Shown in pieces: positions 39,497 through 62,447 of a stretch of 64,000 nt of DNA. Origin of the DNA: Clostridiales bacterium (lineage in GTDB: Bacteria; Bacillota; Clostridia; Christensenellales; UBA1242); NCBI GenBank assembly GCA_015055605.1, contig SVHV01000002.1, positions 216,049 through 280,048 on the forward strand. Reading direction: 5' to 3'. Each line of letters begins with the position of its first letter. Position 1 is the stretch's first letter. The notes under the pieces are model-generated. The model was not told the DNA's origin. It ran no database searches and saw only the letters and a program-made list of their open reading frames with translations. A program made the position numbers and the translations under genes.

Positions 39497-40751
39497 GATG
39501 ACCTCCTACCATTGTATTTCTCTCTCGTTGGGTTGATTTTTCAAAGAAGTCTATACCTTTTAAGATGGCATTTTTGCCGAAAGTGTCTTGAATAGAGAGT
39601 ATGCTCTTAGTTAGATTTTTTTGTTTGGATACTTTTTTAATGTCTGTAAAGAGGTCATAAGATTCACATTCCTCAGATTGCAATTCTGCAAAGTCGTAGC
39701 CTATTTTTCTAATAGGTCTTTTTCTATCTACGATTTTATCAAAAAGATTAGATACATAAGGCTCAATCTCGGTATATAGGTTGGTGGTAATGGGCATACG
39801 AATAGTGCCTTTTGCGAAGTTTTCTCTATCGTCTCCATAGCCTATTAGGATATGAATAAGACTGGTTACTTGTTTTTCTCTAAAGAGGTCGTAACAGCCA
39901 TTCTGGAGCATTTCTTTCAGTATAATTTTTGCGTCAATATAACTATAATCGCAGGGTAGTATTTGAGATGAAGACATTGATTTTGAGGCTGGTTTGTGTG
40001 CTTTGATATCTGACATTAGGCAGGTTTCTATTCCTTTTGCGTGGTCAATGAGTAGTTCGGCATTGATTCCAAATTCTCTATATAATATATCTTCGTCCAT
40101 AGTTGCTATTCCGTACATATCTGTTATTCCGTATTTAGCAAGCCTTGTGCTAATACCTCTCGATATTCCCCAAAAGTCGCTTAAGGGTTTGTGGTGCCAG
40201 AGGGTTTCTCTAAAGAGTTGTTCGGTTAGAAATCCTATATGATTAGGTTTATGCTTTGCTGTTATATCTAGTGCAATTTTGGCTAGATACATATTAGTTC
40301 CGATACCAGCAGAGGCTGGGATTCTAAGGGTGGACCATATCTCGTCCATTAGTTTTTTTGCAAATGATACGGGGGTTAATTTGTATATTTTTAGATAATC
40401 GGTTGCATCTATGAAACACTCATCTATGGAGTATACAAAGATATCGCTAGAGTCTATGTACTTTAGGTATATTCCATAGATTTCTGATGCGTATTTGATG
40501 TATTTTTTCATTTGGGGCTTGGCTATTATATACTCTAGTTTTGGTGGGATTTCGAATAGTCTACATCTATTCTTTACGCCTAAGGCTTTCATTTTGGGTG
40601 ATACTGCTAGACAGATACTGCTCTCAGTCCTCTCTTTGTCAGCAACCACTAAGGGTGTAGTGTAGGGGTCTAACCCTCTCTCTGCACATTCAACTGATGC
40701 AAAAAAAGATTTCATATCTATAACGAAATATATTCTATTCTTAGTTGCCAT
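39489..40751 (-). CDS. Y-family (ImpB/UmuC/UvrX-like) translesion DNA polymerase
   Basis: YFVIDMKSFFASVECAERGLDP catalytic N-terminus, SIDECFID motif. Confidence 0.85.
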   Translation of the reverse strand: MATKNRIYFVIDMKSFFASVECAERGLDPYTTPLVVADKERTESSICLAVSPKMKALGVKNRCRLFEIPPKLEYIIAKPQMKKYIKYASEIYGIYLKYIDSSDIFVYSIDECFIDATDYLKIYKLTPVSFAKKLMDEIWSTLRIPASAGIGTNMYLAKIALDITAKHKPNHIGFLTEQLFRETLWHHKPLSDFWGISRGISTRLAKYGITDMYGIATMDEDILYREFGINAELLIDHAKGIETCLMSDIKAHKPASKSMSSSQILPCDYSYIDAKIILKEMLQNGCYDLFREKQVTSLIHILIGYGDDRENFAKGTIRMPITTNLYTEIEPYVSNLFDKIVDRKRPIRKIGYDFAELQSEECESYDLFTDIKKVSKQKNLTKSILSIQDTFGKNAILKGIDFFEKSTQRERNTMVGGHRG

Positions 40752-50218: not shown

Positions 50219-50851
50219 ATGCCTAAATTAGATGATATTATGAATGTGGTGCAAAAACTGGCAAGTATTGAAGGTGTGGGAGAACACTTATGCTTTTTTG
50301 GTGGCTCTGTGCCTTATATGTTACATGGTATAGATTCTAATAGAGAACATTCAGATATTGATGTTTTAGTTGGAGAGAGTTACATGTCGGCCATTAGAGA
50401 ATGGGCTCAAGACGAGCAGAATGGTTGTCATTATAATTCTGACTTAGACTCTTTAAATTTAGGATTAAATGACGATTATGGTTTCAAGGTATATATTGAT
50501 GGCGTATATGTAGAGTTTGAGCCGTCAGTTGCCCAGAATGGTGTTTTTGTCCGAAAAAGTTTTAGTCCTAATAGGGGGCTTGCTGGTAGGGAAGAGATAC
50601 CTTTTGAGAATATAGAAGATATAATGACCAGTGTTAATATTGGTGGAGCACAAACATTCTTTCAGAGTGTAGAGATGATTAAGGCAGGTAAAGAGCAATA
50701 CAGGAGAGAAAAGGACTTGCAAGATATAGCGTTTATTGAAAGTCAAGGTTACGATACTGAGAGGTACGCTAGAGTAAAACAAGCCTTAGAGTCTAAAAAA
50801 GAGATAATAGGTAGTTATGCTGAACTGCAAACTTCAACTCAAGATATGTAA
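50219..50851 (+). CDS. Pol-beta-superfamily nucleotidyltransferase, Lnu(A)/ANT(2'')-like
   Basis: FFGGSVPYMLHGIDSNREHSDIDVLV closely parallels the GG...G...REHxDID active-site stretch I recall from Lnu(A)-type enzymes. Confidence 0.5.
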   Translation: MPKLDDIMNVVQKLASIEGVGEHLCFFGGSVPYMLHGIDSNREHSDIDVLVGESYMSAIREWAQDEQNGCHYNSDLDSLNLGLNDDYGFKVYIDGVYVEFEPSVAQNGVFVRKSFSPNRGLAGREEIPFENIEDIMTSVNIGGAQTFFQSVEMIKAGKEQYRREKDLQDIAFIESQGYDTERYARVKQALESKKEIIGSYAELQTSTQDM

Positions 50852-50886
50852 AAAAGAACAACTGATTTAGTTGTTCTTTTTTTTTT
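50852..50886. terminator. Bidirectional terminator between convergent genes
   Basis: AGAACAACT-5nt-AGTTGTTCT flanked by A5 and T10. Confidence 0.8.
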
Positions 50887-50888
50887 GC

Positions 50889-52148
50889 TTAGTTATTGTC
50901 GTGCATTATTTTAGATACTTCTTTGTGAGATAGTAGTTCTTTTTTCATTAGCGACTTTGCGACTTTGTCGAGTAGATTCATATTATTAGATAATAATTCT
51001 TTGCTTCTTTGATAATATTTGTCTAGTTCGTGACCGATTTGTTTAGCAATATACTCAGGAATGGCCTCTCTTCTCTCTGAATTGTGGTAATTACTAAAGC
51101 CATACTCACAATACTCAGTCACTAGTCTTTTTGCTATTCTATGAGCTCTGTCGATATCTGAGCCAGCACCGATATCTACTTTGCCGTACTTAAGTTCAAT
51201 TGCTGCCCTTCCTGCGAGTAGGGTAATAATTCTATTCTCCATATATTTCTTATCTACCCAGTAGTCGTCACACTCGTAGTAAGCAGTGAATCCTCCTATA
51301 TTACCCATGTGATTAGCGATAGTTACTAGAGATACACTATGTGGCTGTAATAGTTCTGCTACAACGGCGTGTCCTGCCTCGTGATAAGCAATGACTTCGA
51401 TTTGCTTTTCAGTTCTGCCATAGATATTAGTTGGAGCACCGAAAGCAGTCTTTACATAGGCTTTCATGATGTCGTCCATCTCGATTTGGCTCTTGTTTGC
51501 ATAACCTGCAACAACTCCAGCCTTATTGATAAGACTCTCTAATTCTGCACAAGAGTAACCATTGAGGAGTTTGGATATCTCGTCTATGTCTAAAGTTGCT
51601 ACATATTTCTTTTGGCTTAGGTAATACTCAATTATTTTCTTTGCGTCTTCGCCTTGAGGGTTTTGTACTTGAATCTTTTCGTCAAATCTACCCTCTCTAA
51701 GTAATGAGTCTGGTAGTAGGTACTTAGCGTTAACAGTGGCGATTACTAATACATTTTTATTTTTCACCTCGTCCATACAGGCTTGTACTGTTACATACTC
51801 TTCTGTATTAGGTCTAGTGTAGTCCTCGTTTGCAAATTTGTCTAGGTCGTCTAGTAAAACTATTGAAGGAGCATTCTTTACTGCTTCGTCAAAAGTTTCT
51901 TTTATATGATTGATAAATTCTCCGTTTGGTTTGTTTTTTCTGCATATAAATCCGGGTCTGCCACTAGCCTCGATTAGGCAGTTTGCCATTAAACTCTTGC
52001 CCACACCTGGGTCGCCATGAAACATAATGCCCTTAGGTAGTCTTGCTCCTAGTGCATCGTATTTGTCTGGATGTTGCATAATGTCTGCAAACTTCCTAAG
52101 TTCAGTTTTTATTCCTTCGTATCCTATGATTTTGTCTAAGCAATCCAT
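50889..52148 (-). CDS. Soluble FtsH-like AAA+ ATPase / M41 zinc metalloprotease lacking transmembrane and periplasmic regions
   Basis: Walker A GDPGVGKS, Walker B VLLDDLD (D in place of the usual E), SRH LLREGRFDEKIQV, zinc site HEAGHAV and GAGSDIDRAHRIA; the protein begins directly at the AAA module. Confidence 0.8.
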   Translation of the reverse strand: MDCLDKIIGYEGIKTELRKFADIMQHPDKYDALGARLPKGIMFHGDPGVGKSLMANCLIEASGRPGFICRKNKPNGEFINHIKETFDEAVKNAPSIVLLDDLDKFANEDYTRPNTEEYVTVQACMDEVKNKNVLVIATVNAKYLLPDSLLREGRFDEKIQVQNPQGEDAKKIIEYYLSQKKYVATLDIDEISKLLNGYSCAELESLINKAGVVAGYANKSQIEMDDIMKAYVKTAFGAPTNIYGRTEKQIEVIAYHEAGHAVVAELLQPHSVSLVTIANHMGNIGGFTAYYECDDYWVDKKYMENRIITLLAGRAAIELKYGKVDIGAGSDIDRAHRIAKRLVTEYCEYGFSNYHNSERREAIPEYIAKQIGHELDKYYQRSKELLSNNMNLLDKVAKSLMKKELLSHKEVSKIMHDNN

Positions 52149-52200
52149 ATAGTGTCTCCTTTAGTGAAAATTTTTATTGTACTTATTATAAGGTATTGTA

Positions 52201-52217
52201 TGTACCAAAATTTGTAC
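52201..52217. promoter_or_regulatory. Island palindrome copy a: TGTACCAAAATTTGTAC
   Basis: Read directly; between the phosphatase stop and the FtsH-like start. Confidence 0.6.
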
Positions 52218-52224
52218 TTCGTGT

Positions 52225-52905
52225 TTATTTTGTGTAAAATTCTTTCATGTCTTCTTTTCTTAAAATGCCTAACATTCTCGTATAGCTAACACCTGTATCT
52301 AGTCTGATTCTGGAGTAGGAGGAGAAGTTGTTGCGATTGTGATTTCGCTTAAGTGTTTTTATAAACTTGCCAGTGTTGTTGGTATATACACAGGGTGTGT
52401 GTCCTAATAAGATAGGTTTGTCTAGGCTAATGCCTTTGGTCTGAATGAAGTTCCTGTCGTATATCAAATAATTTGTATTTTGTTGTTCTAGAGGTAATAC
52501 TTTATTGTTAACAACTTCTAGTCCTGCATGTACACAGATAAAGTCCTCGGTTTCTATATAGTATGGTAAATTAGATAAATAAGAAATTTCTTTTGCTGTG
52601 ATTTCTTCGTTGTTTGATGGGAAGTAAGTATTTATTTCTCTTATAATTTCCTCGTCTTCTAGTTGTGAGGGGGTTAGTGCTATTTCTCTAACATATTGTA
52701 AGAAGGTGGCTTCATGATTGCCTAGAATAGCAATCATATTTTTGTTCTCTATAATGAACTTTAGTAATTTAATAGAGTCTTTGCCTTTGTCTATGATGTC
52801 GCCGAGTATATATAGGGTGTCATTTTTATTGAAATTAATTTCTTTTAATAATTCAATAAATAGCTCATATTCGCCATGGATGTCGGATATAAAATATGTT
52901 GCCAT
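52225..52905 (-). CDS. PPP-family metallophosphoesterase (PrpA/lambda-phosphatase/ApaH-like)
   Basis: SDIHGE, LGDIIDKGKDS, GNHE, HAG and GHTP motifs in canonical order. Confidence 0.8.
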   Translation of the reverse strand: MATYFISDIHGEYELFIELLKEINFNKNDTLYILGDIIDKGKDSIKLLKFIIENKNMIAILGNHEATFLQYVREIALTPSQLEDEEIIREINTYFPSNNEEITAKEISYLSNLPYYIETEDFICVHAGLEVVNNKVLPLEQQNTNYLIYDRNFIQTKGISLDKPILLGHTPCVYTNNTGKFIKTLKRNHNRNNFSSYSRIRLDTGVSYTRMLGILRKEDMKEFYTK

Positions 52906-52949
52906 GTTATTCTCCTTATTTTGAATCGGCTTTATTGTATATTAATCAA

Positions 52950-52967
52950 TGTACAAAATTTGGTACA
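52950..52967. promoter_or_regulatory. Island palindrome copy b: TGTACAAAATTTGGTACA in the divergent control region
   Basis: Read directly; lies in the 106-bp gap between divergent genes 52905(-) and 53012(+). Confidence 0.65.
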
Positions 52968-53011
52968 ATGGTTTATTTATAATATGAATAATATGTTTTC
53001 TAGGAGGAAGT

Positions 53012-53467
53012 ATGGGCGTAGTTATTAATGATTTAGCAGATTTGAAAAATTTTATCAAGTTAAAACACAGTAAAAAAAAGATTGAAATGAAATTTGATGA
53101 TGTGGTGTTTAATTGTGTATTGCCACACAAAAGGCATTTTAATTATTTTTGCGAGCAGGATATACAAGATTATGATGTTAGTATAATTGCAAAGAGTGTT
53201 ACCTTTAATTATCCTGCAGAGATAGATAATCTTCATGCTAGTCAAGTCGTGGCGAATGATTCGCTAATTTGCGAATTGATAAATGTGATAGGAGATGTGA
53301 GAGGGGCATATATAGCAACCAACTCTTTTATTGGCATTGATATAACAGCGGGTACTTTTGTTGTTAAGAATCTTGTTTGTCGGCATATTAAAGTCAAACT
53401 ATTAGTTCTTAATAATGAAGATTATCCATATCTAAAAGCAGATGCTATTAATAATATAGGGGTGTAA
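53012..53467 (+). CDS. Hypothetical protein P1 (151 aa), paralog of P2
   Basis: RBS AGGAGG; N-terminus INDLADLKNFIK parallels P2 INKIEDLKPFIK; alternating hydrophobic pattern suggests a beta-rich repeat. Confidence 0.55.
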   Translation: MGVVINDLADLKNFIKLKHSKKKIEMKFDDVVFNCVLPHKRHFNYFCEQDIQDYDVSIIAKSVTFNYPAEIDNLHASQVVANDSLICELINVIGDVRGAYIATNSFIGIDITAGTFVVKNLVCRHIKVKLLVLNNEDYPYLKADAINNIGV

Positions 53468-53468
53468 T

Positions 53469-54059
53469 ATGATTGAGATTAATAAGATTGAAGACTTGAA
53501 ACCATTTATTAAGTATGTGGACAAAAAATACACTAATGGAATATATCCTGCTATTAATTTTGAATTTAAAATACATGGTGAATTGCAAGATGTTGAGATT
53601 AAATGTGACCTACAACTGATTGAGGAAAATATGAATATTTTTTATGGTGAACTTGATGATGTGTTGTCGCTAGTAGATATAGATGAGGGGTATTGTGTAA
53701 ACTTTTTTGCTAAAAATGTTTATGCGAAAAAAATATTCGATTGTGAACATCTGAAGTGCGAAAATTTTTATATTGAGAAAGAGTCAAAAGTAGATTTTTT
53801 GGTTGTGGCTGATACTATTAAGGGTAGGATATTAAAGGCTCAAGATATATTTTGTGATAATTTAGATATAGACATTGTTGATTGTAGTTTTTTAAATGCT
53901 CTTAATGTAAAAGCAAAAGTTTATAAGGGTAAAGGTGCAGTCTTTACAAATGTTGAATATCACAACCCAGACTTTCCAAAAGAATTGGTTGAGAGTTGGG
54001 GTAGTAATGAATCTAAGCCGTATGGTATTGTGTATCAACATGATAGGCTATTGTTTTAA
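53469..54059 (+). CDS. Hypothetical protein P2 (196 aa), paralog of P1
   Basis: ATG 1 nt after the P1 stop (TAATATG); shared N-terminal motif and repetitive A..V.A..I pattern. Confidence 0.55.
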   Translation: MIEINKIEDLKPFIKYVDKKYTNGIYPAINFEFKIHGELQDVEIKCDLQLIEENMNIFYGELDDVLSLVDIDEGYCVNFFAKNVYAKKIFDCEHLKCENFYIEKESKVDFLVVADTIKGRILKAQDIFCDNLDIDIVDCSFLNALNVKAKVYKGKGAVFTNVEYHNPDFPKELVESWGSNESKPYGIVYQHDRLLF

Positions 54060-54075
54060 AAATGTATTGTAACAA

Positions 54076-54093
54076 TGTACCAAATATTGGACA
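54076..54093. promoter_or_regulatory. Island palindrome copy c: TGTACCAAATATTGGACA upstream of the DUF2779 gene
   Basis: Read directly; 38 nt upstream of an extended -10 TGTTATAAT (54131-54139). Confidence 0.6.
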
Positions 54094-54130
54094 TAGTACA
54101 ATAAAATTGCTTTCTTGATGGTGGGAATTG

Positions 54131-54139
54131 TGTTATAAT
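54131..54139 (+). promoter_or_regulatory. Extended -10 promoter element TGtTATAAT
   Basis: Read directly; 24 nt upstream of ATG 54163 (RBS AGAGAGG). Confidence 0.5.
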
Positions 54140-54162
54140 GGTTGTATGTAAGAGAGGTGCGT

Positions 54163-55659
54163 ATGCATTTTAGCAAATCGAAATATTGTGGGTTTTATCA
54201 GTGTCCAAAGATTACATGGCTAAAGAAAAACAAGCCAGAAGAGTTTGTTCCTGACGAGGCGGCACTAGGTCGTATGGCTAGTGGTAATGAACTAGGCGAC
54301 CTTGCTATGGGGATTTTTGGAGATTTTGTAGAAACAACAACCTATACTGATGATAAATTAGATATTCCTCAGATGATAGAAAAAACTAAAGAGTATATGG
54401 CTAAAGGTGAGGCTGTTATATGTGAGGCGTCTTTTGAATATGATGGCTTGTATTGTGCAGTAGATATACTTAAGAAAGAGCCTGGTGGTTATAGTATTTA
54501 TGAGGTAAAGAGTTCTACTCATGAGCATAATTTTGCATACATTGTAGATGTTTCGTACCAGAAATATGTGCTAGAAAAGTGTGGAGTAAATATTGTGTCG
54601 GTCAATCTAGTGACAGTTAATAACGATTATGTCTTTGATGGCACACTTAAACTAAATGAGCTTTTCAAAATCACTAATGTAGATCAACAAGTTGCTGACG
54701 AAATTGATAAAGTAGAGCCTAATCTAATTGATGCAGAAAAGATACTTGAGAGAGAAGACGAACCTAATATGGATATAAGTGTTAAGTGTCATACTCCTTA
54801 TGTTTGTGGTTTCTGGAAATACTGTACAAAGCATATTCCAGAGGTGTCAGTATTTAATCTATATAGAACAGACTTTCAGAAGAAATTGAACTATTATTAT
54901 AATGGCATTATTACTATGGAAGATTTGGCTAATTGTGGCGAGTATTTGGGTGATAAACAAAATATGCAGATACTACACGCTACCAGTGATTTGCCTGACC
55001 ATATTGATGCAGAGGGTATAAAAAAGTTCTTAGGTAAACTATCTTATCCTCTATACTTTTTAGACTTTGAAACCATGCAATTACCAATACCTCAGTTTGT
55101 TGGAACTAAACCATATCAGCAGATACCTTTTCAATATTCTCTGCATTATATAGAGTCTATGGGTGGAGAACTTAAGCATAAAGAGTTCCTTGCTGAATCG
55201 GGCGAAGACCCTAGAAGGGCAATTGCTGAGAGTCTATGTAGAGATATTCCTCAGAATGTATGTGTTCTAGCATATAATAAAGGCTTTGAGAGTGGTAGAC
55301 TTAGTGAACTGGCTGAGACTTTTCCAGACCTAAAGGATCATTTATTGAATATTGCTATTAATATGAAAGACCTAATTGACCCTTTTAGAGATGGTTATGT
55401 GTACAATAGGAGAATGGGAGGTTCGTTCTCAATTAAGAGTGTGTTACCTGCGTTATTTCCTAATGCACCAGAATTGGACTATCACAACCTTGATGGTGTA
55501 CATAATGGAGGAGAGGCTATGAGTATCTTCCCTAAAATCAAAGATATGTCACCAGAGGATAGAGAGAGGGCTAGGAATAGCCTGCTTAAATACTGCGAAC
55601 TAGATACTTTTGCAATGGTGAAAATATTTGAGTATCTTGTAAATGCAGTAAAGGAGTAA
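54163..55659 (+). CDS. DUF2779-type protein: Cas4-like PD-(D/E)XK nuclease with 4Fe-4S cysteines plus C-terminal DEDD/RNase-H-like module
   Basis: N-terminus FSKSKYCGFYQCPKITWL, VDIL..YEVKSS nuclease core, C-x7-C-x5-C (CHTPYVCGFWKYC), FLDFET exonuclease-like motif; start moved to ATG 54163. Confidence 0.7.
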   Translation: MHFSKSKYCGFYQCPKITWLKKNKPEEFVPDEAALGRMASGNELGDLAMGIFGDFVETTTYTDDKLDIPQMIEKTKEYMAKGEAVICEASFEYDGLYCAVDILKKEPGGYSIYEVKSSTHEHNFAYIVDVSYQKYVLEKCGVNIVSVNLVTVNNDYVFDGTLKLNELFKITNVDQQVADEIDKVEPNLIDAEKILEREDEPNMDISVKCHTPYVCGFWKYCTKHIPEVSVFNLYRTDFQKKLNYYYNGIITMEDLANCGEYLGDKQNMQILHATSDLPDHIDAEGIKKFLGKLSYPLYFLDFETMQLPIPQFVGTKPYQQIPFQYSLHYIESMGGELKHKEFLAESGEDPRRAIAESLCRDIPQNVCVLAYNKGFESGRLSELAETFPDLKDHLLNIAINMKDLIDPFRDGYVYNRRMGGSFSIKSVLPALFPNAPELDYHNLDGVHNGGEAMSIFPKIKDMSPEDRERARNSLLKYCELDTFAMVKIFEYLVNAVKE

Positions 55660-55663
55660 ATTT

Positions 55664-56659
55664 ATGCCATTAGACAGTAATAAGAAGTTATATATAATGT
55701 ATATCTTAAAGGTATTAAGAGAAGAAAGTGACGAAAAGCATCCTCTTAGACAATTAGATATAATTAACAAAGTTAAGTCTAGATATAATGTTGATAATAT
55801 CGACAGAAAGACCATTGCTAGAACAATAGATAGCTTAATAGACATGGGTGTCGATATTGTTAAATTAGAAGGTGGAGGCTGTTACCTTGCAGATAGGGAA
55901 CTTGAGCCTAGCGAGATTACTTTTTTAATTGATGCTATATTCTCTAGTCGTGCTTTGAATTGTAAACAAGCCAAAGATTTGTCTGACAAACTCTCTAAAT
56001 TGCTTAGTGTACATCAAAGAAACAGATTTAAGTATGTGCATAAGTCAGATGAGGTTGTGAGGACCGACAATAAACAACTGTTTCTAAATATTGATATGAT
56101 AAGCGAGGCTATAGAAAAGGGTAAACAAATCTCTTTTAATTACACTAGACATTATTTTGATAAAAATAAAAATGCCGAGCAAGAAGAAAAAGAGTATATA
56201 ATCAATCCATACTTTATGGTTAATAATCAAGGAAAGTATTACCTTGTGTGTAATTATGATTATTATAATGATGTGGCTAATTATAAAATTGAGCAAATCA
56301 GAAATGTGAAAATATTAGACACAGATATTAAGCCTATTACCAAACTGAAAGATTGTGAAAATGGTTTAGATAAGGCTAAATTTATCAATGAAAATATTTA
56401 TATGTTTAACAATCAGACTGTATCGGCAGTGATTAAAGTTGGTGACGAGTATGCGGTTAATTATATTGTAGACTGGTTTGGCAAGGACGCTAGACTTTAT
56501 AGTAAAGATGGCGACATACTAGCATCTGTGAGAGTCAATGAACAAGCACTAATATACTGGTGTCTACAATATGGCGAAAGTGTTGAACTTGTATCTCCGG
56601 AGACAACTAGAGAAAAAATTAAAGATATTGTGAAGATATTATATAAAAAATACCAGTAA
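55664..56659 (+). CDS. wHTH-WYL-WCX transcriptional regulator (BrxR/CapW-like architecture)
   Basis: N-terminal winged HTH (YILKVLREESDEKHPLRQLDIINKV), WYL core GKYYLVCNY...NYKIEQIRNVKIL, C-terminal extension; starts 4 nt after the DUF2779 stop. Confidence 0.75.
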   Translation: MPLDSNKKLYIMYILKVLREESDEKHPLRQLDIINKVKSRYNVDNIDRKTIARTIDSLIDMGVDIVKLEGGGCYLADRELEPSEITFLIDAIFSSRALNCKQAKDLSDKLSKLLSVHQRNRFKYVHKSDEVVRTDNKQLFLNIDMISEAIEKGKQISFNYTRHYFDKNKNAEQEEKEYIINPYFMVNNQGKYYLVCNYDYYNDVANYKIEQIRNVKILDTDIKPITKLKDCENGLDKAKFINENIYMFNNQTVSAVIKVGDEYAVNYIVDWFGKDARLYSKDGDILASVRVNEQALIYWCLQYGESVELVSPETTREKIKDIVKILYKKYQ

Positions 56660-56668
56660 GTAAAACGG

Positions 56669-56686
56669 TGTACTAAATTTGGTACA
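56669..56686. promoter_or_regulatory. Island palindrome copy d: TGTACTAAATTTGGTACA (may double as the WYL terminator hairpin)
   Basis: Read directly; followed by TGTTTTTG. Confidence 0.55.
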
Positions 56687-56837
56687 CTGTTTTTGTTATG
56701 ATTAGATTATAGATGGTTCTTGTGGACGATAAATAGAGTGATTTTAATATATTGTTTAGTGGGTTTGATAGTATGTAATTTTGTTTATATACTTACATTA
56801 AAAATTAGATGTACTATATCAAACCAAAGGGGGTTAT

Positions 56838-57341
56838 ATGAAATTTGAGGTTAGGCTATGTAGCGTGCTAGATAGTGGTACAGATATAATAGTTAATGCA
56901 GCTAATAATTATTTGTCTAGAGGCGGCGGTGTTTGTGGTGCGATTTTTGAGAGGGCAGGAGCAGAACTGCTCGAGGCTGAATGTAGAGTGTGGGGGTATG
57001 TTAAAACTGGCTCAGTTGCTACTACTAATGGATTTCAATCTGGTGCTAAATATATTATTCATGCTGTTGGTCCAAACTTTTATATAGACCATCAGGATTG
57101 GCAAGAGAAACTAGAGAGTGTGTATAAAAAATCGCTACTCGTGGCTGACGACTTGGGTGTAAATAGTATTGCTTTTCCTTGTATATCTACTGGAATATTT
57201 GGCTGTCCTATAGAAGAGTCTGCTAAGATTGCTGTGAGGGTTGTTAGAGAGTTTCAGCCCAAAAACCTAAAGAATTGTGTACTTTGTTGTTTTACAGACG
57301 GAGAATATTCTGTCTATAATGCATTACTGTATAGCAAGTAA
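56838..57341 (+). CDS. Stand-alone macro domain protein (MacroD/YmdB-like ADP-ribose hydrolase)
   Basis: IVNAANNYLSRGGGVCGAIFERAG, IIHAVGP, IAFPCISTGIFG motifs. Confidence 0.85.
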   Translation: MKFEVRLCSVLDSGTDIIVNAANNYLSRGGGVCGAIFERAGAELLEAECRVWGYVKTGSVATTNGFQSGAKYIIHAVGPNFYIDHQDWQEKLESVYKKSLLVADDLGVNSIAFPCISTGIFGCPIEESAKIAVRVVREFQPKNLKNCVLCCFTDGEYSVYNALLYSK

Positions 57342-57498: not shown

Positions 57499-57528
57499 GG
57501 GGGCAAGATTATTATGGGGGTTGGGGTT

Positions 57529-58725
57529 ATGAAAAAGGATTCCATAAGTAGTCTTGGCGAGCATTATAGAGGGCTAGTTGGTGATATAGCCTACAATGAT
57601 AAAAATGCTACAATTAAGACAATTGTAAAAGATTATTCTTCTAAGTTTGGCACATTACAAGCCTGCTTTATGAGTGATAATCACTTGGGCTCTTCTGATA
57701 CAGATATCGAGGGCTTAATGGAGACTCTTAGATATGCAAATTCTCAAGAGAATGCTGTTATCTTTATTCTAGGAGATGCTCTTAATACTGCGATTGTTGG
57801 CAGTAAATCTGATGCTTATGAGGACATACTTTCTCCTCAAGAGCAGTTAGATGTTTTTTCTGAGGTCTTGAAACTTGCTAAAGGCAATAAAGAAGTTGCT
57901 AGAGTATTACAAGACCTAAACGATACTGGCAAAATAGTAGTCTTGCATAGTGGAAATCACGAGGACAGAATCAGAAAAGCTGTGGGTATTTCTACTACAA
58001 AACTTGCTGCAGATATTGCCGGTGTTGGAGATGTTTTCGCTCCATATTACGCTAGTACTGATTTAGTGCTTAGACAACCACTTGCTCCAGATGGTAAGTT
58101 CCATTTTGGCGTGGTTTCTCATCACGGCACAGGTATTTCTAATATAGACGGAACATTTAGACTACTTAGAACTGTAGACAATGCTAATATGTGTGTAATA
58201 GGTCACACTCATCAGCAATCTATGAAATACGAAAGAATGATTAAAGTTGACCCAGATGGTAAGCAGAGATACCATGATGTTTTGTGTCTAACACTACCTT
58301 CTAGTGGTGGTGGTACTTATGGCGCAGGTATGTCACTTCCTGATACTGCTAAACAGACAGCAGTTTGGGTTGCTATTAGTTCACAACCAAACCCTTATGC
58401 TGGTAGGATTTCTCCTACTGGTATTGAGTATCCAGATATTATCCCTGCCTGTGCGTTCTTTACTCCTACTAATACTATGGATACAAAGATTAAACAAAAA
58501 AGACACAATGCTGCAAAGAGAGTTATTGAGCAGGGTTGTGAAGAACAATTAGACTCAGTTAATGCAAAAATCAATGAAGCAGTAGATGCTATCACAGAAT
58601 TTGAGCAGTACCTCCGTAATAAAGTGCAAGGTGCTATCGTAGAGAAACCTAGAAAAAAACCTAGTGGCTATGATGCTTATGTACAAGCACTTGAAGAAAA
58701 TCAAGGTGAAAAGGGAGGAATGTAA
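57529..58725 (+). CDS. Calcineurin-like metallophosphoesterase with complete active-site motifs and coiled-coil tail
   Basis: SDNH, LGDALN, SGNHED, SHHG, GHTHQ in canonical order; ATG 57529 behind the G-rich RBS preferred over ATG 57514. Confidence 0.75.
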   Translation: MKKDSISSLGEHYRGLVGDIAYNDKNATIKTIVKDYSSKFGTLQACFMSDNHLGSSDTDIEGLMETLRYANSQENAVIFILGDALNTAIVGSKSDAYEDILSPQEQLDVFSEVLKLAKGNKEVARVLQDLNDTGKIVVLHSGNHEDRIRKAVGISTTKLAADIAGVGDVFAPYYASTDLVLRQPLAPDGKFHFGVVSHHGTGISNIDGTFRLLRTVDNANMCVIGHTHQQSMKYERMIKVDPDGKQRYHDVLCLTLPSSGGGTYGAGMSLPDTAKQTAVWVAISSQPNPYAGRISPTGIEYPDIIPACAFFTPTNTMDTKIKQKRHNAAKRVIEQGCEEQLDSVNAKINEAVDAITEFEQYLRNKVQGAIVEKPRKKPSGYDAYVQALEENQGEKGGM

Positions 58726-58727
58726 TT

Positions 58728-60074
58728 ATGTCAGATATTGTTACTAAGATTGCTCATGGTGAAGTTGATGACAAAATTGATGTAGATTACATCAGAAGAA
58801 GTGGCGACTATATCAGAGAAAGGATTTTGGACGCAACTGAAGTTGACTTGTCTAGGACTGCTCCTAATGTATTTAATTATGTTATGCCTAGAAATAGTTT
58901 AGGCTTAAACGAGATTAGTAATGTAGATATGGGCTATGCTGGTACTAGTGTAGACTTTGCTGGCGAGCATTTGTCTAAGAGAAATCCATATCTAAAAGAG
59001 TTAGAGTATAATGTATCCCTTATGAGAGATAGCGAAAATGCTATTGTCATTCTTAATGGTGGATTATTTAGTTATGTGCCAAAGACTCAACATGGCAGAT
59101 TGCTTTCTTATCAAGAACAGATTGCTTACTTCTATTCTTTATTTAAAGATTTGGCTGATCAGGGAAAGATTGTTGCTATGGTTAGAGGAACAGAAGAGCA
59201 TAGAATTCTTAAAAACCATCAGATAGATGTTTTATCTGTATTACAAGAGGCTCTAGGCCTTCAACAAAAGGTATGTAATGATGCCCTTGTGAATGTTGCT
59301 ATTGAGGACGATATGGTTGGTAGAGCAAATGTTGGTATTAGAACTATTAACTGGAATAATACTGCAACAACAGGTGCTTATATCGGTCGTAAGATGGAAG
59401 AGAGAGCAACCAAAAGAGGTGGTGCAGATATTTATATTGCTAGAACAACTATGAATTACTTTAAGACTGCTGTAATAGGTGAGAGTGATGGTACTCATAT
59501 CAGAAAGAAACCTATCTATCTATTATCTGGTGGCTCATATACTCCATTCAAGGGTGCGATGACTGCTGGTGCAGAGTATAATTCTATTAAAGATGGCGAA
59601 CTACCTCCTAATAGTTTCTGGTACAAGGTTACTATTGAAGAAAAAGCTCCAGAGATTGATGGGGATAGACCTTATATTGTTAGAGTTAATCCTATTCAGT
59701 ACACTGCTCACCAGATTACACTTCAAGGTACTGATGAATTAGTTGCTGGAATTGAGAACGAAATCGAGGCTAAGACTGACGGTTTGGTTCAGGGCTTTGT
59801 AGATAGATTTTCTACTGCAATATCTACTCCTAGAGAAGAGGGTAGAAAGAGAATTAGAGAAATCTTGATTAATAATAAAAAGGTGGCGGCACAAAATACA
59901 GATATTGCTAAGTATGTTGCTGCTAAGAAAGGAAAGGGTGCTTATGTTGAGTCCCCAGCTAGAATAGAGGACCTAGGTAGTAATGTGCCAGTTAAGAAAC
60001 CTATAACTATCATTGACGGTGTTACAAATCTTGAAGAAGTAACCCCTGCTCCCGAAGAAGACCTACTTCCTTAG
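58728..60074 (+). CDS. Degenerate (probably inactive) paralog of the upstream metallophosphoesterase
   Basis: Blockwise similarity ENAIVILNGGLFS / ENAVIFILGDALN, LLSYQEQI / ILSPQEQL, GKIVAMVRGTEEHRI / GKIVVLHSGNHEDRI, IARTT / IGHTH; metal ligands substituted; ATG 2 nt after the upstream stop. Confidence 0.65.
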   Translation: MSDIVTKIAHGEVDDKIDVDYIRRSGDYIRERILDATEVDLSRTAPNVFNYVMPRNSLGLNEISNVDMGYAGTSVDFAGEHLSKRNPYLKELEYNVSLMRDSENAIVILNGGLFSYVPKTQHGRLLSYQEQIAYFYSLFKDLADQGKIVAMVRGTEEHRILKNHQIDVLSVLQEALGLQQKVCNDALVNVAIEDDMVGRANVGIRTINWNNTATTGAYIGRKMEERATKRGGADIYIARTTMNYFKTAVIGESDGTHIRKKPIYLLSGGSYTPFKGAMTAGAEYNSIKDGELPPNSFWYKVTIEEKAPEIDGDRPYIVRVNPIQYTAHQITLQGTDELVAGIENEIEAKTDGLVQGFVDRFSTAISTPREEGRKRIREILINNKKVAAQNTDIAKYVAAKKGKGAYVESPARIEDLGSNVPVKKPITIIDGVTNLEEVTPAPEEDLLP

Positions 60075-60086
60075 TTGAATAATAAA

Positions 60087-60116
60087 AGAGTAGACGAGAT
60101 GTCTGCTCTTTTTTTT
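60087..60116 (+). terminator. Intrinsic terminator
   Basis: AGAGTAGAC-5nt-GTCTGCTCT plus T8. Confidence 0.75.
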
Positions 60117-60142
60117 GTTGTGCAATTAATTTTTATTTGTGG

Positions 60143-60220
60143 ACAAAAGTACACGAAAATATTGTTTGGTTTATTGTGGTTGAGTGGTTTTAGTGTACAA
60201 AAAGCAATACAAAAGTACAC
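60143..60220. repeat. GTAC-cored repeats: ACAAAAGTACAC x2 (60143, 60209) and inverted GTGTAC/GTACAC (60193/60215)
   Basis: Read directly, immediately upstream of TTGACA at 60229. Confidence 0.6.
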
Positions 60221-60282
60221 AAATGCTATTGACATTAGTGTGTTATTGTGTTAGTATAAGTTTGATAACGGAGGTAATTATA

Positions 60283-61335
60283 ATGTCAAGAATAAAAACA
60301 CAAGAAGAGGTTGCTAAGTTTATAAAAGAAAAAATGAATGATAAGGGAATTAAAAAATCTATTGACCTTGCTAGAGCTGTTTCAATATGTAAGTATGGTC
60401 ATGAGATGGGGAGTAGACCAGATAATATTGATGCTATCAAGTATAGTGTGAGCAAGTGGCTACAATGGGAGAACAAAGATAAATCTAGATTTCCTGGCAC
60501 TGAGTATATATTTTATCTATCACAAGTTTTAGGGGTTACGATGGAAGAATTATTGATGGCAGGAGATGTTTGCTCAAAGTATGACAATAGACCATTTTCG
60601 TTATATGCAATAGCAAAGAGTAATAGTCCGGAGTTGCTAGAATCTGTAAGAGATAATGATAGCATAGACGGAAATTCTATTCTATCTAATTATGATGAGT
60701 TTGATAAAACACTACTGCATTATATTTTAGAGTTTGATAGTAGAGAATTGTTGCAATATATGATAGACAATGGCTATGTAAGATTTGAAAATACAGGTTT
60801 TACAATATATGTGACAATGTGGGGAATGTATTTTAATACAGAGTTATATTCAAAAATTGTGAAGATGGCTATCAAGTATGATGATATTAATATTTTTAGA
60901 AGTGCGATTAATAGAGTGTTGCCCTTGTATAAAGATATGTTAGATGAAGAGGATATGCTTAAGATTTTAGATACTACTGAAATATTTAAGTATCTCACTA
61001 CTCCTTATGTTGCTACTGCTGAGGAGTGGAGAATGGTTAATCCTGGTATTACATATATAGATAATGAATCTACTGAAGCATTAAAAGGGGTGCAGGTTTT
61101 ACCTATCTTATTTAATAACTTGTTGGCAGTTGCAAAAGATAGTCAAAATGATAAACTAGACTTACTTAGGGATATTGCGAAGAAACACAATAAAACTACA
61201 ATGGACTTGATAAATAGATTTTACTCTAGAAAAGAATTTGAAATACTTGAAGACGGACGACTTACTTCGGGTAGGTATGGTTGGCTTACAGTTTTAGGTA
61301 TGGAAGATGGGAAAGTTGTAGGAGAGGGTGCTTGA
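60283..61335 (+). CDS. XRE-like HTH protein with helical-repeat (possibly ankyrin-like) C-domain
   Basis: ATG 60283 behind RBS GGAGG; HTH stretch IDLARAVSI...KYSVSKWLQWEN; KTLLHYILEFDSRELLQYMIDNGY resembles an ANK repeat (weak). Confidence 0.55.
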   Translation: MSRIKTQEEVAKFIKEKMNDKGIKKSIDLARAVSICKYGHEMGSRPDNIDAIKYSVSKWLQWENKDKSRFPGTEYIFYLSQVLGVTMEELLMAGDVCSKYDNRPFSLYAIAKSNSPELLESVRDNDSIDGNSILSNYDEFDKTLLHYILEFDSRELLQYMIDNGYVRFENTGFTIYVTMWGMYFNTELYSKIVKMAIKYDDINIFRSAINRVLPLYKDMLDEEDMLKILDTTEIFKYLTTPYVATAEEWRMVNPGITYIDNESTEALKGVQVLPILFNNLLAVAKDSQNDKLDLLRDIAKKHNKTTMDLINRFYSRKEFEILEDGRLTSGRYGWLTVLGMEDGKVVGEGA

Positions 61336-62447
61336 TGAGATATTTGTTTTTTGATGCTGAATCTATACACAATAGGCATAAATATTCATATACTTTTGGT
61401 TATGTGGCAACTGATGATAAGTTTAAGCTTATTGCCCCTCGAGAAGATATAGTTTTTAATCCTGATATTCCCAAAGAAGAATATGACTGGCGTGTAATCA
61501 GAACAATGATGGAGCCTAGTTATAGCCTAAAAGAAGTGATTAAGAAACCTAAATTCACTACTTACTATAAGAAAATTAGTAAAATAATATCTGTTCCTGA
61601 TACTCTATGTATAGGCTGGCAGATGGACGGAGATGTGAAGTATCTTTTGAATAATTGTCATAGATATAATCTACCTGCAATAAACTTGCGATATATAGAT
61701 GTTAGAGATATTCTTCAGATTTTAACAAAGGAACAAGTGGGGTCTCTTTCGCATGAGTATACGAAATGGTGTCATAAATTACCAGAGTTGTCTCACACTA
61801 GCGATATTGATGCAGATATGACCAAAGATGTTCTAAATGCAGTGTTTAAGAAATATAAAATAAACCTAAAAGATTTCTTGGCAGAGCATAGCGAAATTAT
61901 GGGCGAAGCTAAAGACTTTGTTTATGGTTATACAAAAAAAGAAGATGTTAGAATTGAAAATGCAAAAACAGACATTATGATTAATGGTCGTAGATTTAAG
62001 CGTTCTGTGGGAGAAAAGGGCGATGATATGTCATCTAAGTCACTTAATAAACTGTTGTTTACAAGGTATTTAGACTATGTAACAATTAATAAAGATGCAG
62101 AACACTATTTAGCAGGAAAGTCGGTTAGTATAAGCTTGAATTATGAAAGGTATCATTTTCAAAATATGGTCAAACTGGTAAAAGTTCTTAGTGAGGTTGG
62201 CGCAGAGTACAGGCTAAAGGCTACTGAGTCTGATATTCTGGTAACTTATGATGATATATTAGATGCAGAAGGAGGAATAAGGTCTTGTTCTAAACTTAAA
62301 CATGTTAAAGAATTGGGCGAAGATTGTAATATGGAAATTATGAGTTTTGATGATTTTCTTGCACTGCTAAATTTAGATAGAGAATCTTTAGATGATTTAC
62401 CTAAGATTGATGTAGAATTTTTATCAGATGAAAAATATGCTCGTTAG
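61335..62447 (+). CDS. DEDDh (DnaQ-like) 3-prime-5-prime exonuclease with C-terminal BRCT-like domain
   Basis: Exo I FFDAES, Exo II GWQMDGDVKYL, Exo III HTSDIDADMT; C-terminal LAGKSVSISLNYER...VGAEYRL...DILV BRCT-like pattern; ATG overlaps the upstream TGA (TGATG). Confidence 0.6.
   Translation: MRYLFFDAESIHNRHKYSYTFGYVATDDKFKLIAPREDIVFNPDIPKEEYDWRVIRTMMEPSYSLKEVIKKPKFTTYYKKISKIISVPDTLCIGWQMDGDVKYLLNNCHRYNLPAINLRYIDVRDILQILTKEQVGSLSHEYTKWCHKLPELSHTSDIDADMTKDVLNAVFKKYKINLKDFLAEHSEIMGEAKDFVYGYTKKEDVRIENAKTDIMINGRRFKRSVGEKGDDMSSKSLNKLLFTRYLDYVTINKDAEHYLAGKSVSISLNYERYHFQNMVKLVKVLSEVGAEYRLKATESDILVTYDDILDAEGGIRSCSKLKHVKELGEDCNMEIMSFDDFLALLNLDRESLDDLPKIDVEFLSDEKYAR

Follow-up and report, generated by a model that had tools for sequence, protein, structure and literature searches.

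The present analysis concerns a cluster of genes around a soluble FtsH-like protease in a stretch of 64,000 nucleotides (hereafter the window; all positions refer to it) of contig SVHV01000002.1 from a Clostridiales bacterium (GCA_015055605.1). An earlier sequence-only reading of this DNA had placed the open reading frame (ORF) of a PPP-family phosphatase (52225-52905, minus strand, 226 aa) ahead of a 76-bp gap and the protease ORF (50889-52148, minus strand), with a palindrome between the two genes. This layout was borne out, the palindrome lying at 52201-52217. The same reading proposed that the two enzymes may form a signalling or effector pair; the comparison of homologous loci described below points instead to a WYL-domain transcription regulator and a palindromic promoter as the partners of the protease. 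The features on which this explanation is built are the following.

50889-52148, minus strand: FtsH-like AAA+/M41 zinc protease of 419 aa without transmembrane (TM) helices, recognised from the ORF, Pfam, a PDB search, alignment and a structure model
52185-52217, minus strand: promoter of the protease gene, with the operator GTAC-N8-GTAC at 52202-52217, an 11-nt spacer, the -10 box TATAAT at 52185-52190 and no -35 element
52201-52217, 52950-52967, 54076-54092 and 56669-56686: the four copies of the palindrome
55664-56659, plus strand: winged helix-turn-helix (wHTH)-WYL-WCX transcription regulator of 331 aa, recognised with Pfam, PADLOC and a profile search of the PDB

The protease and its family

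FtsH is the textbook membrane-anchored AAA+ protease. As judged from its sequence, the product of the gene at 50889-52148 is a cytosolic member of the FtsH superfamily, with an AAA+ ring and an M41 zinc-protease chamber. Pfam assigns an AAA domain to residues 41-162, AAA_lid_3 to residues 186-228 and Peptidase_M41 to residues 247-414 (PF00004, 68.6 bits; PF01434, 95.1 bits, each over its cutoff). The protein thus has the superfamily architecture, in which a classical AAA domain precedes an M41 domain that bears HEXXH and a third, acidic zinc ligand, and it carries the second region of homology (SRH) with its arginine fingers and the sensor-1 Asn. The NCBIfam equivalog model of FtsH (TIGR01241) aligns residues 6-411 with model positions 163-598, the cytosolic part only, and the score of 237 bits falls below the cutoff of 600; against PRK10733 the protein scores 159 bits for a cutoff of 1008. 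In the PDB sequence search, residues 9-416 align with TM-less cytosolic constructs of T. maritima FtsH (E ~1e-46), the N-terminus coinciding with the start of these soluble crystallisation constructs and the alignment opening at FtsH position about 150-165. An AlphaFold2 model (predicted local distance difference test, pLDDT, 88.9) was superposed by Foldseek on apo-FtsH 3kds with a TM-score of 0.84. By analogy with FtsH, a hexamer held by the protease ring would be expected.

The two TM helices flanking a periplasmic domain, by which FtsH is anchored in the membrane, are lacking. Their absence, claimed in the sequence-only reading, agrees with hydropathy: the 19-residue Kyte-Doolittle maximum is 1.10, below the TM range, and it does not exceed 1.36 among 30 relatives of the protease, while a membrane transporter of the same window reaches 3.37. 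Between the ATG at 52148, which follows the ribosome-binding site AGGAG at 52156-52160, and the preceding in-frame stop there is no other start codon, so that no TM helices can be recovered upstream and the possibility of a missed start falls away.

The key residues for nucleotide hydrolysis, substrate engagement and zinc binding were located as follows.

G45-S52: Walker A (GDPGVGKS)
F78: pore-1 aromatic residue
D100-D101: Walker B (DD)
N140: sensor 1
R151 and R154: arginine fingers
H256-E257-x-x-H260: zinc site
D331: third zinc ligand

The PDB alignment sets IVLLDDLD of the protease against IVFIDEID of FtsH, so that the catalytic Glu of the Walker B consensus hhhhDE is replaced by Asp (VLLDDLD), as had been noticed from the sequence. 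The motifs that had been called intact are so, namely LLREGRFD (LLRPGRFD in FtsH), an identical HEAGH, and the zinc-binding Asp in SDID (NDIE in FtsH). In pore loop 1 the aromatic F78 is retained, the Gly of the FVG motif is replaced by Asn, and a four-residue deletion follows directly.

The protease belongs to a large family without a name, of about 420 aa, in Clostridia and Bacilli. A word-indexed search with the protease gave more than 3000 matches. The best 120 are without exception TM-less AAA+M41 proteins; they measure about 415-460 aa, apart from one of 595 aa, come from Clostridia-type metagenome-assembled genomes (MAGs) and are annotated "AAA family ATPase" at most. In an exhaustive search of 1.84 billion cluster representatives, the best 150 clusters (50% identity) were nearly all of 415-445 aa. 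Among the 138 of these clusters with lengths of 380-520 aa, Walker A is present in 138, HExxH in 137, Walker B with DD in 134 and RxGRhD in 127. Residues G45, G48, G50, K51, F78, D100, D101, D103, K104, N140, R151, G153, R154, D156, H256, E257, H260 and D331 are invariant in an alignment of 30 sequences, and the position of the FVG Gly is occupied by Lys, Asn or Asp in the relatives. As read from these alignments, the hallmarks of the family are the missing membrane anchor, the Asp-Asp Walker B, a shortened pore-1 loop and an intact proteolytic site. Since DD occurs in 134 of the 138 clusters and is invariant in the alignment, the change from Glu to Asp is a selected family trait. The retention of the arginine fingers and sensor 1 beside it argues that nucleotide turnover probably still matters. 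A slow or differently coupled use of ATP is suggested by the Asp-Asp motif of Walker B together with the changed pore loop.

A tblastn search for phage homologues returned only distant FtsH genes with identities of at most 30%, and the one inspected, from the jumbo phage Callisto, of 576 aa with an N-terminal extension, was rejected as a family member. One family protease (8001-9290) was observed on a jumbo-phage-like IMG/VR contig of 214 kb (L169) among replication-type genes (ligase-like, PD-(D/E)XK-like); neither a WYL gene nor the operator occurs near it.

The WYL regulator and the palindromic promoter

Gene neighbourhoods were compared over 95 loci of the family, comprising 11 from contig look-ups and genomes, 80 metagenome loci picked with family-specific N-terminal patterns and four IMG/VR viral contigs. 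A control set of 74 canonical FtsH loci (L012-L085; 1.22 Mb) was drawn from a contig scan with two patterns, one of them HEAGH, which is common to canonical FtsH; only L006-L011 among the loci of that scan are family members.

Searches by tblastn with the neighbouring genes of the window found the WYL gene in 46 of the 95 loci and the phosphatase and DUF2779 genes in seven each, while no homologue of any of the three was found around canonical FtsH (0/74 each), in loci not taxonomically matched to the family. An all-against-all clustering of the ORFs within 4 kb of the protease likewise placed the WYL regulator first (43 of 93 loci), followed by a 267-aa protein (14 loci), with DUF2779 in five. 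Where at least 1.5 kb was available on both sides of the protease, a WYL gene lay within 4 kb in 27 of 41 loci. It is directly adjacent to the protease in 18 of the 43 WYL-positive loci, and its position downstream on the same strand in 24/43 suggests co-transcription. Adjacency or translational coupling is seen in L006, L008, L011 and L166: in L006, a Bacilli MAG, the WYL gene precedes the protease by a 17-bp gap between rpoC and efp, in L008 the order is again WYL then protease, and in L011 the protease comes first, its stop codon overlapping the WYL start. Elsewhere the genes between the two vary and act mostly on nucleic acids (DUF2779, Mrr-type endonuclease, HD, PD-(D/E)XK, a DnaB_C-like ATPase, a 410-aa protein). 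Genes of McrBC, HD-domain and GmrSD/DUF262-like types also flank the protease (L003/L004:1127-5558, L011:12515-15509, L093:3222-6346); such arrangements suggest that restriction-type genes gather preferentially in the protease-WYL region.

The WYL protein of the window is matched by PF13280 (42.7 bits) and PF25583 (27.2 bits), both over their cutoffs, and by the PADLOC WYL model (4e-26). It has the wHTH-WYL-WCX organisation, the N-terminal wHTH being conserved in the alignment but not called by Pfam. A PDB search with the single sequence gave no match; a profile of 24 WYL sequences matched PafBC (6e-8) and several DriD structures (~1e-6), and no BrxR or CapW entry at E-values up to 0.01. As the sole DNA-binding protein of the cluster, it is presumed from co-location to bind the operator. 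Published WYL regulators bind spaced palindromes, such as CGAC-N7-GTCG for DriD and CGWCA-N5-TGWCG for DdaA (PMC12392091), and for PafBC and SiwR the site of action is the promoter region around -26 (PMC10693628).

The palindrome TGTACCAAAATTTGTAC and its close variants occur four times in the window, all in intergenic positions and all within this cluster, where 0.45 copies would be expected by chance; the three exact matches to GTAC-N8-GTAC in the window are all among these four sites. Beside the copy in the protease promoter, the following sites were found.

52934-52983, both strands: divergent promoter pair around one operator (52951-52966), separated by 11 nt on the minus side from TACAAT (52934-52939), the phosphatase promoter, and by 11 nt on the plus side from TATAAT (52978-52983), the promoter of genes o151 and o196
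54077-54092: third operator copy, GTACCAAATATTGGAC, which has one mismatch and precedes the DUF2779 gene, its -10 spacing unlike that of the other copies
56662-56693: hairpin with a 14-bp stem right after the WYL stop codon, holding the fourth operator copy with the core GTACTAAATTTGGTAC at 56670-56685

The fourth copy is followed after 11 nt by TATGAT, a candidate promoter of the Macro-domain gene. Because the site is also a terminator-like hairpin its role is ambiguous, and it may serve as a terminator, as the Macro operator or as both.

Across the family the promoter consists of TGTAC-N8-GTACA, an 11-nt spacer and TAnnnT, and a -35 element is lacking. In 11 of 80 loci the protease ATG is preceded at 60-90 bp by an exact GTAC-N8-GTAC, which 0.26% of random 150-bp windows contain, and with one mismatch at most the operator precedes the protease in 30/80 loci, against 3.8% of control windows. 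The hexamer TAnnnT follows exactly 11 nt past the operator in 19 of 27 sites and after 12-13 nt in most others, and the combination GTAC-N11/12-TAnnnT is found in 27 of 75 unique upstream regions (1.3% of controls). A position weight matrix (PWM) of the operator gave 82 matches in 749 kb of family loci against eight in shuffles, an enrichment that is partly circular because half of the matches lie upstream of the protease and the matrix was built from those sites; variants with GTCC, GTGC or GCAC half-sites fall under its threshold. The operator spans about -39 to -24, in place of a -35 element, with its proximal half-site at about -26; ahead of the protease in the window the promoter reads GGTAC, 11 nt, TATAAT. 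The arrangement of PafBC/SiwR-type promoters, a site near -26 with a good -10 box and no -35 element, is thus present at the 19 of 27 sites and in four promoter directions of the window, and by analogy the geometry resembles the -26 sites of WYL activators.

A separate arrangement, class B, was found in three loci (L128, L130, L109; e.g. L130:5922-13181). An AAA ATPase of 670 aa (AAA_lid_6) is followed there by the protease, the 267-aa protein, a ClpP-like protein, two unassigned genes, a weakly matching DSP-like phosphatase and a LexA-like S24 repressor. Control of these loci by LexA was considered and rejected: no GAAC-N4-GTTC was found when sought, and the protease is preceded instead, in a 67-bp gap, by the operator variant GCACC-N6-GGTGC, 11 nt and TACACT.

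The phosphatase and the other genes of the cluster

The remaining features of the cluster are listed below.

52225-52905, minus strand: PPP-family metallophosphatase of the NinI/lambda-phosphatase and ApaH-like type, 226 aa, recognised with Pfam, PHROG and the PDB
53012-54059, plus strand: o151 (53012-53467) and o196 (53469-54059), behind the shared operator
54142-55659, plus strand: DUF2779 protein, in which a Cas4-like PD-(D/E)XK nuclease is fused to an exonuclease-like domain
56838-57341, plus strand: Macro-domain ADP-ribose hydrolase
50850-50882: terminator-like hairpin, flanked on either side by T-runs, that separates the protease stop codon from a convergent 210-aa ORF

The phosphatase combines the Metallophos domain (PF00149, 67.3 bits, 3e-18) with the metal- and phosphate-binding motifs of PPP metallophosphatases, namely DxH (DIHG), GDxxDK (GDIIDKG), GNHE and GH (GHTP), with Lys in place of the Arg of the PPP consensus GDxxDR. 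It matches the phage NinI-like Ser/Thr phosphatases of phrog_246 over its full length (4e-41), and among solved structures ApaH-like enzymes are closest (2e-9), with lambda phosphatase at 3e-5. On these matches its earlier description as a lambda-phosphatase-like PPP enzyme is fair. Lambda phosphatase, NinI and the ApaH-like enzymes share its Metallophos fold and motifs; the likeness to NinI extends over the full length and that to ApaH over the N-terminal half, the ApaH equivalog model (PRK00166) covering residues 1-130 only with a score of 72.6 against a cutoff of 176. The protein stays below every NCBIfam equivalog cutoff. Its substrate could be a protein, Np4N or an RNA end. Fragments of RtcB-like RNA ligases were observed adjoining the phosphatase subfamily in L147 (2909-4135) and in the same locus in L164 (4393-5395, 11262-11963), and the phosphatase weakly resembles the phosphatase domain of bacterial Pnkp; the two observations together hint at a role in RNA-end healing rather than protein dephosphorylation. 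L147 also contains an ADP-ribosylglycohydrolase-like gene.

The products of o151 and o196 have no match in Pfam, NCBIfam, PADLOC or PHROG, and homologues are absent from the other 95 loci; the idea that the two are paralogues was rejected, since they share only a 14-residue N-terminal similarity (E 0.054). The true start of the DUF2779 protein is probably the Met codon at 54163 and not the TTG at 54142, because its homologues align from residue 8. An extended -10 element (TGTTATAAT) was noticed ahead of this gene at about 54129-54137. The Macro gene possibly belongs to the regulon. It is followed by four consecutive genes on the plus strand (57514-62447; 403, 448, 383 and 388 aa), the first of which is weakly SbcD/metallophosphoesterase-like (phrog_7339, 'DNA repair exonuclease', 1e-23); the other three have no Pfam or PADLOC match, PADLOC returning nothing for all four, and the set may be an uncharacterised nuclease system. 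The 210-aa ORF convergent with the protease (50219-50851, plus strand) has no match in Pfam, NCBIfam, PADLOC, PHROG or the PDB; a nucleotidyltransferase-like G[GS]...DxD motif can be seen in it by eye (FFGGSVP...SDIDVLV).

The cluster sits in ordinary chromosomal DNA, with transporters, an inorganic pyrophosphatase, NDK and a Y-family polymerase. The gene for the last (DinB/UmuC-type, 39489-40751, minus strand) lies 10 kb from the cluster and has no operator copy near it. The window holds no tRNA gene, no integrase domain was found in the Pfam scan of the ORFs beyond about 33 kb, and a megablast of the cluster against plasmids gave no match.

Interpretation and comparison with known systems

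The findings are explained with fair probability by a WYL-controlled, stress-induced cytosolic protease, whose conserved partners, as judged from gene order, promoter form and analogy with characterised regulators, are the WYL regulator and the palindromic promoter and not the phosphatase. The soluble regulated protease of the sequence-only reading is supported by the family-wide loss of TM helices, by the equally family-wide Asp in Walker B and by the conserved operator-promoter, while the pairing with the phosphatase is not. A WYL dimer would bind the TGTAC-N8-GTACA operator, and a stress ligand, by analogy probably single-stranded DNA (ssDNA) arising from DNA damage or from attack by phages or mobile genetic elements, would make it switch the protease promoter on, activation being more likely than release from repression. 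The soluble hexamer would then degrade specific cytosolic proteins, be they products of the regulon, nucleases, the regulator itself or proteins of the invader, and so carry the response through or reset it, a part played for the PafBC regulon by the Pup-proteasome. In the genome of the window, the four operator copies would join the protease, the phosphatase, o151/o196, DUF2779-WYL and probably the Macro gene in one regulon.

Several points weigh against this explanation. That the WYL protein binds the operator is deduced only from co-location, and the link between the two in fully flanked loci is modest (both present in 14, neither in seven, WYL only in seven, operator only in four). The class-B loci keep the operator variant without a WYL gene within 7 kb, so that another factor could bind it or a WYL gene could act in trans. 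Repression, too, would fit an operator that overlies the -35 position. With Asp in place of Glu in Walker B and a changed pore-1 loop, the protease may not translocate substrates at all, and neighbourhoods rich in nuclease- and restriction-like genes (McrBC, GmrSD-like, Mrr, HD) fit phage defence as well as DNA damage.

A broader form of the proposal is put forward tentatively. The protease and the WYL regulator might be the fixed frame of a stress and defence cassette in Firmicutes, made up of operator, protease, a variable nucleic-acid enzyme and WYL, in which an ssDNA-sensing WYL protein would induce the protease together with interchangeable nucleases (DUF2779, Mrr, HD, PD-(D/E)XK) and the protease would time or limit the response.

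It is possible, if somewhat doubtful, that the genes form an anti-phage defence module, in which the WYL protein is a BrxR/CapW-like repressor and the protease, with variable nucleases between the two, is an effector or core part degrading phage or host proteins on infection. Neighbourhoods resembling defence islands (McrBC with HD, GmrSD/DUF262-like genes), the Mrr, PD-(D/E)XK, HD and DnaB_C-like genes between protease and WYL, and the four family members on IMG/VR viral contigs agree with such a role, and WYL regulators often control defence systems (PMC9122601). The AAA part of the protease also resembles IetA of the Ietas system (PADLOC, 1e-22); however, the likeness reported by PADLOC is generic to AAA proteins (IetA or TRIP13), and the NCBIfam IteA model (NF042959) gives 63 bits, its cutoff being 510. 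Among solved structures it is PafBC and DriD that the WYL profile retrieves, and not BrxR or CapW; the promoter geometry is activator-like, and the pair in L006 has no defence genes near it. A defence role overlaps with WYL-controlled induction of the protease rather than excluding it.

The reverse direction of control, in which the protease cleaves the WYL protein or a repressor and proteolysis is the switch, as in CapP/CapH or IrrE/DdrO, appears improbable. It would suit the tight coupling of the two genes, with stop and start overlapping in L011, and the frequent position of WYL downstream on the same strand. Yet the cis element with the strongest conservation lies on the protease gene and marks the protease as the target. 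M41 chamber proteases such as FtsH are, moreover, processive rather than site-specific. The characterised WYL regulators (PafBC, DriD, SiwR, CapW) are switched by the binding of a ligand and not by cleavage (PMC11662680, among other sources).

The dedicated phosphatase-protease pair, in which for example dephosphorylation would gate the protease or its substrates, is more improbable still. The two genes adjoin on the same strand with no terminator predicted in the 76 bp between them, and related phosphatases recur in the family (7/95 loci against 0/74 controls not taxonomically matched), lying downstream of the protease on the same strand in L103, L105 and L164. Nevertheless, 88 of the 95 loci are without one, and where the phosphatase is present its distance (0.4-4.2 kb), side and strand vary. 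Clustering of the ORFs within 4 kb gave seven positive loci including the window, or eight with matches past 4 kb. Several of the positive loci are near-duplicates (L103/L105, L150/L158), so that independent occurrences come to about five. The protease has, besides, its own conserved operator and -10 box within the 76-bp gap. The recurrence of the phosphatase in family loci and not in controls indicates that it may be an occasional accessory. With the four palindrome copies lying beside the protease, phosphatase/o151, DUF2779-WYL and Macro genes, it is probably a locally recruited member of the palindrome regulon and not an obligatory partner. Protease and phosphatase are probably co-regulated in the window, as both stand behind copies of one palindromic operator, and transcription from the phosphatase promoter may run on into the protease gene, the gap having no predicted terminator.

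That the protein is an ordinary housekeeping FtsH paralogue, or a fragment without its 5' end, would accord with its FtsH likeness along the whole length, but is already effectively refuted by family-wide conservation, with more than 130 clusters (50% identity), clearly subject to purifying selection, that have the N-terminus, the length and the DD Walker B in common, with a conserved promoter and ribosome-binding site directly upstream, and with an NCBIfam FtsH score well short of the cutoff.

Literature searches found no paper linking WYL regulators with M41, a metalloprotease or an FtsH-like soluble protease. A large natural family without the membrane anchor, with a changed Walker B and a reshaped pore, would offer a ready system for the study of substrate choice and of the coupling between ATP use and proteolysis, and the annotation of its members, currently labelled only AAA family ATPase or FtsH, can be corrected. 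The operator, the regulator and the protease are short and well defined, which makes the proposal directly testable. The conserved association of the protease with a PafBC/DriD-like WYL regulator and with a promoter of the -26 type suggests that gut and rumen Clostridia and Bacilli possess a circuit for stress or defence that is driven by WYL, independent of LexA and equipped with a proteolytic arm.

Comparison with known systems helps to place the protease. With FtsH/HflB (MEROPS M41; TIGR01241) it shares one classical AAA module followed by the M41 domain, the Walker A, sensor 1, both SRH arginines, HEXXH and the third Asp ligand, as well as the fold. It differs from FtsH in lacking the N-terminal TM helices and the periplasmic domain, in the Asp of Walker B, in the lost Gly of FVG with the four-residue deletion after it, in an identity of only 27-32%, and in its link to a WYL regulator and an operator-type promoter. 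IetA (IetAS/Ietas) is likewise an FtsH-like classical AAA protein that works with a protease in defence, and PADLOC IetA models match residues 11-281; however, IetA lacks an M41 domain and has IetS, a separate serine protease, as its partner, and no IetS-like (S8 protease) gene was found among the neighbours scanned with Pfam. The "FtsH ternary systems" of the Aravind group differ in having two AAA domains and MoxR-vWA partners.

On the side of the regulator, the homodimeric ssDNA-sensing WYL activators DriD, DdaA and SiwR share with the present system the wHTH-WYL-WCX organisation, spaced palindromes and local action on adjacent genes. The half-sites and spacing of DriD and DdaA differ from GTAC-N8-GTAC, and the known targets of the three are division inhibitors, repair genes or DinB-like enzymes and not a protease; one paper lists ftsH among the predicted DdaA targets in some Gammaproteobacteria. 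In the PafBC/Pup-proteasome locus of Actinobacteria, as here, a WYL regulator is genomically tied to an AAA+-driven compartmental protease, and PafBC-type promoters similarly dispense with a -35 element, the regulator site being placed at about -26 (PMC10693628). The linked Pup-proteasome removes the proteins of the regulon after damage and thereby makes the response transient (PMC8223512). PafBC is a heterodimer on an asymmetric site, whereas the palindrome here would presumably be bound by a homodimer; in mycobacteria protease genes are not known as the main target of the PafBC regulon, whereas here the protease promoter is the conserved target. The Pup-proteasome, furthermore, requires Mpa, the 20S proteasome and Pup tagging, in contrast to the single-chain AAA-M41 enzyme. 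The circuit proposed for Clostridia and Bacilli parallels the actinobacterial connection, and the cassette, if true, would be its single-polypeptide counterpart, with an AAA+ motor that naturally carries Asp in Walker B.

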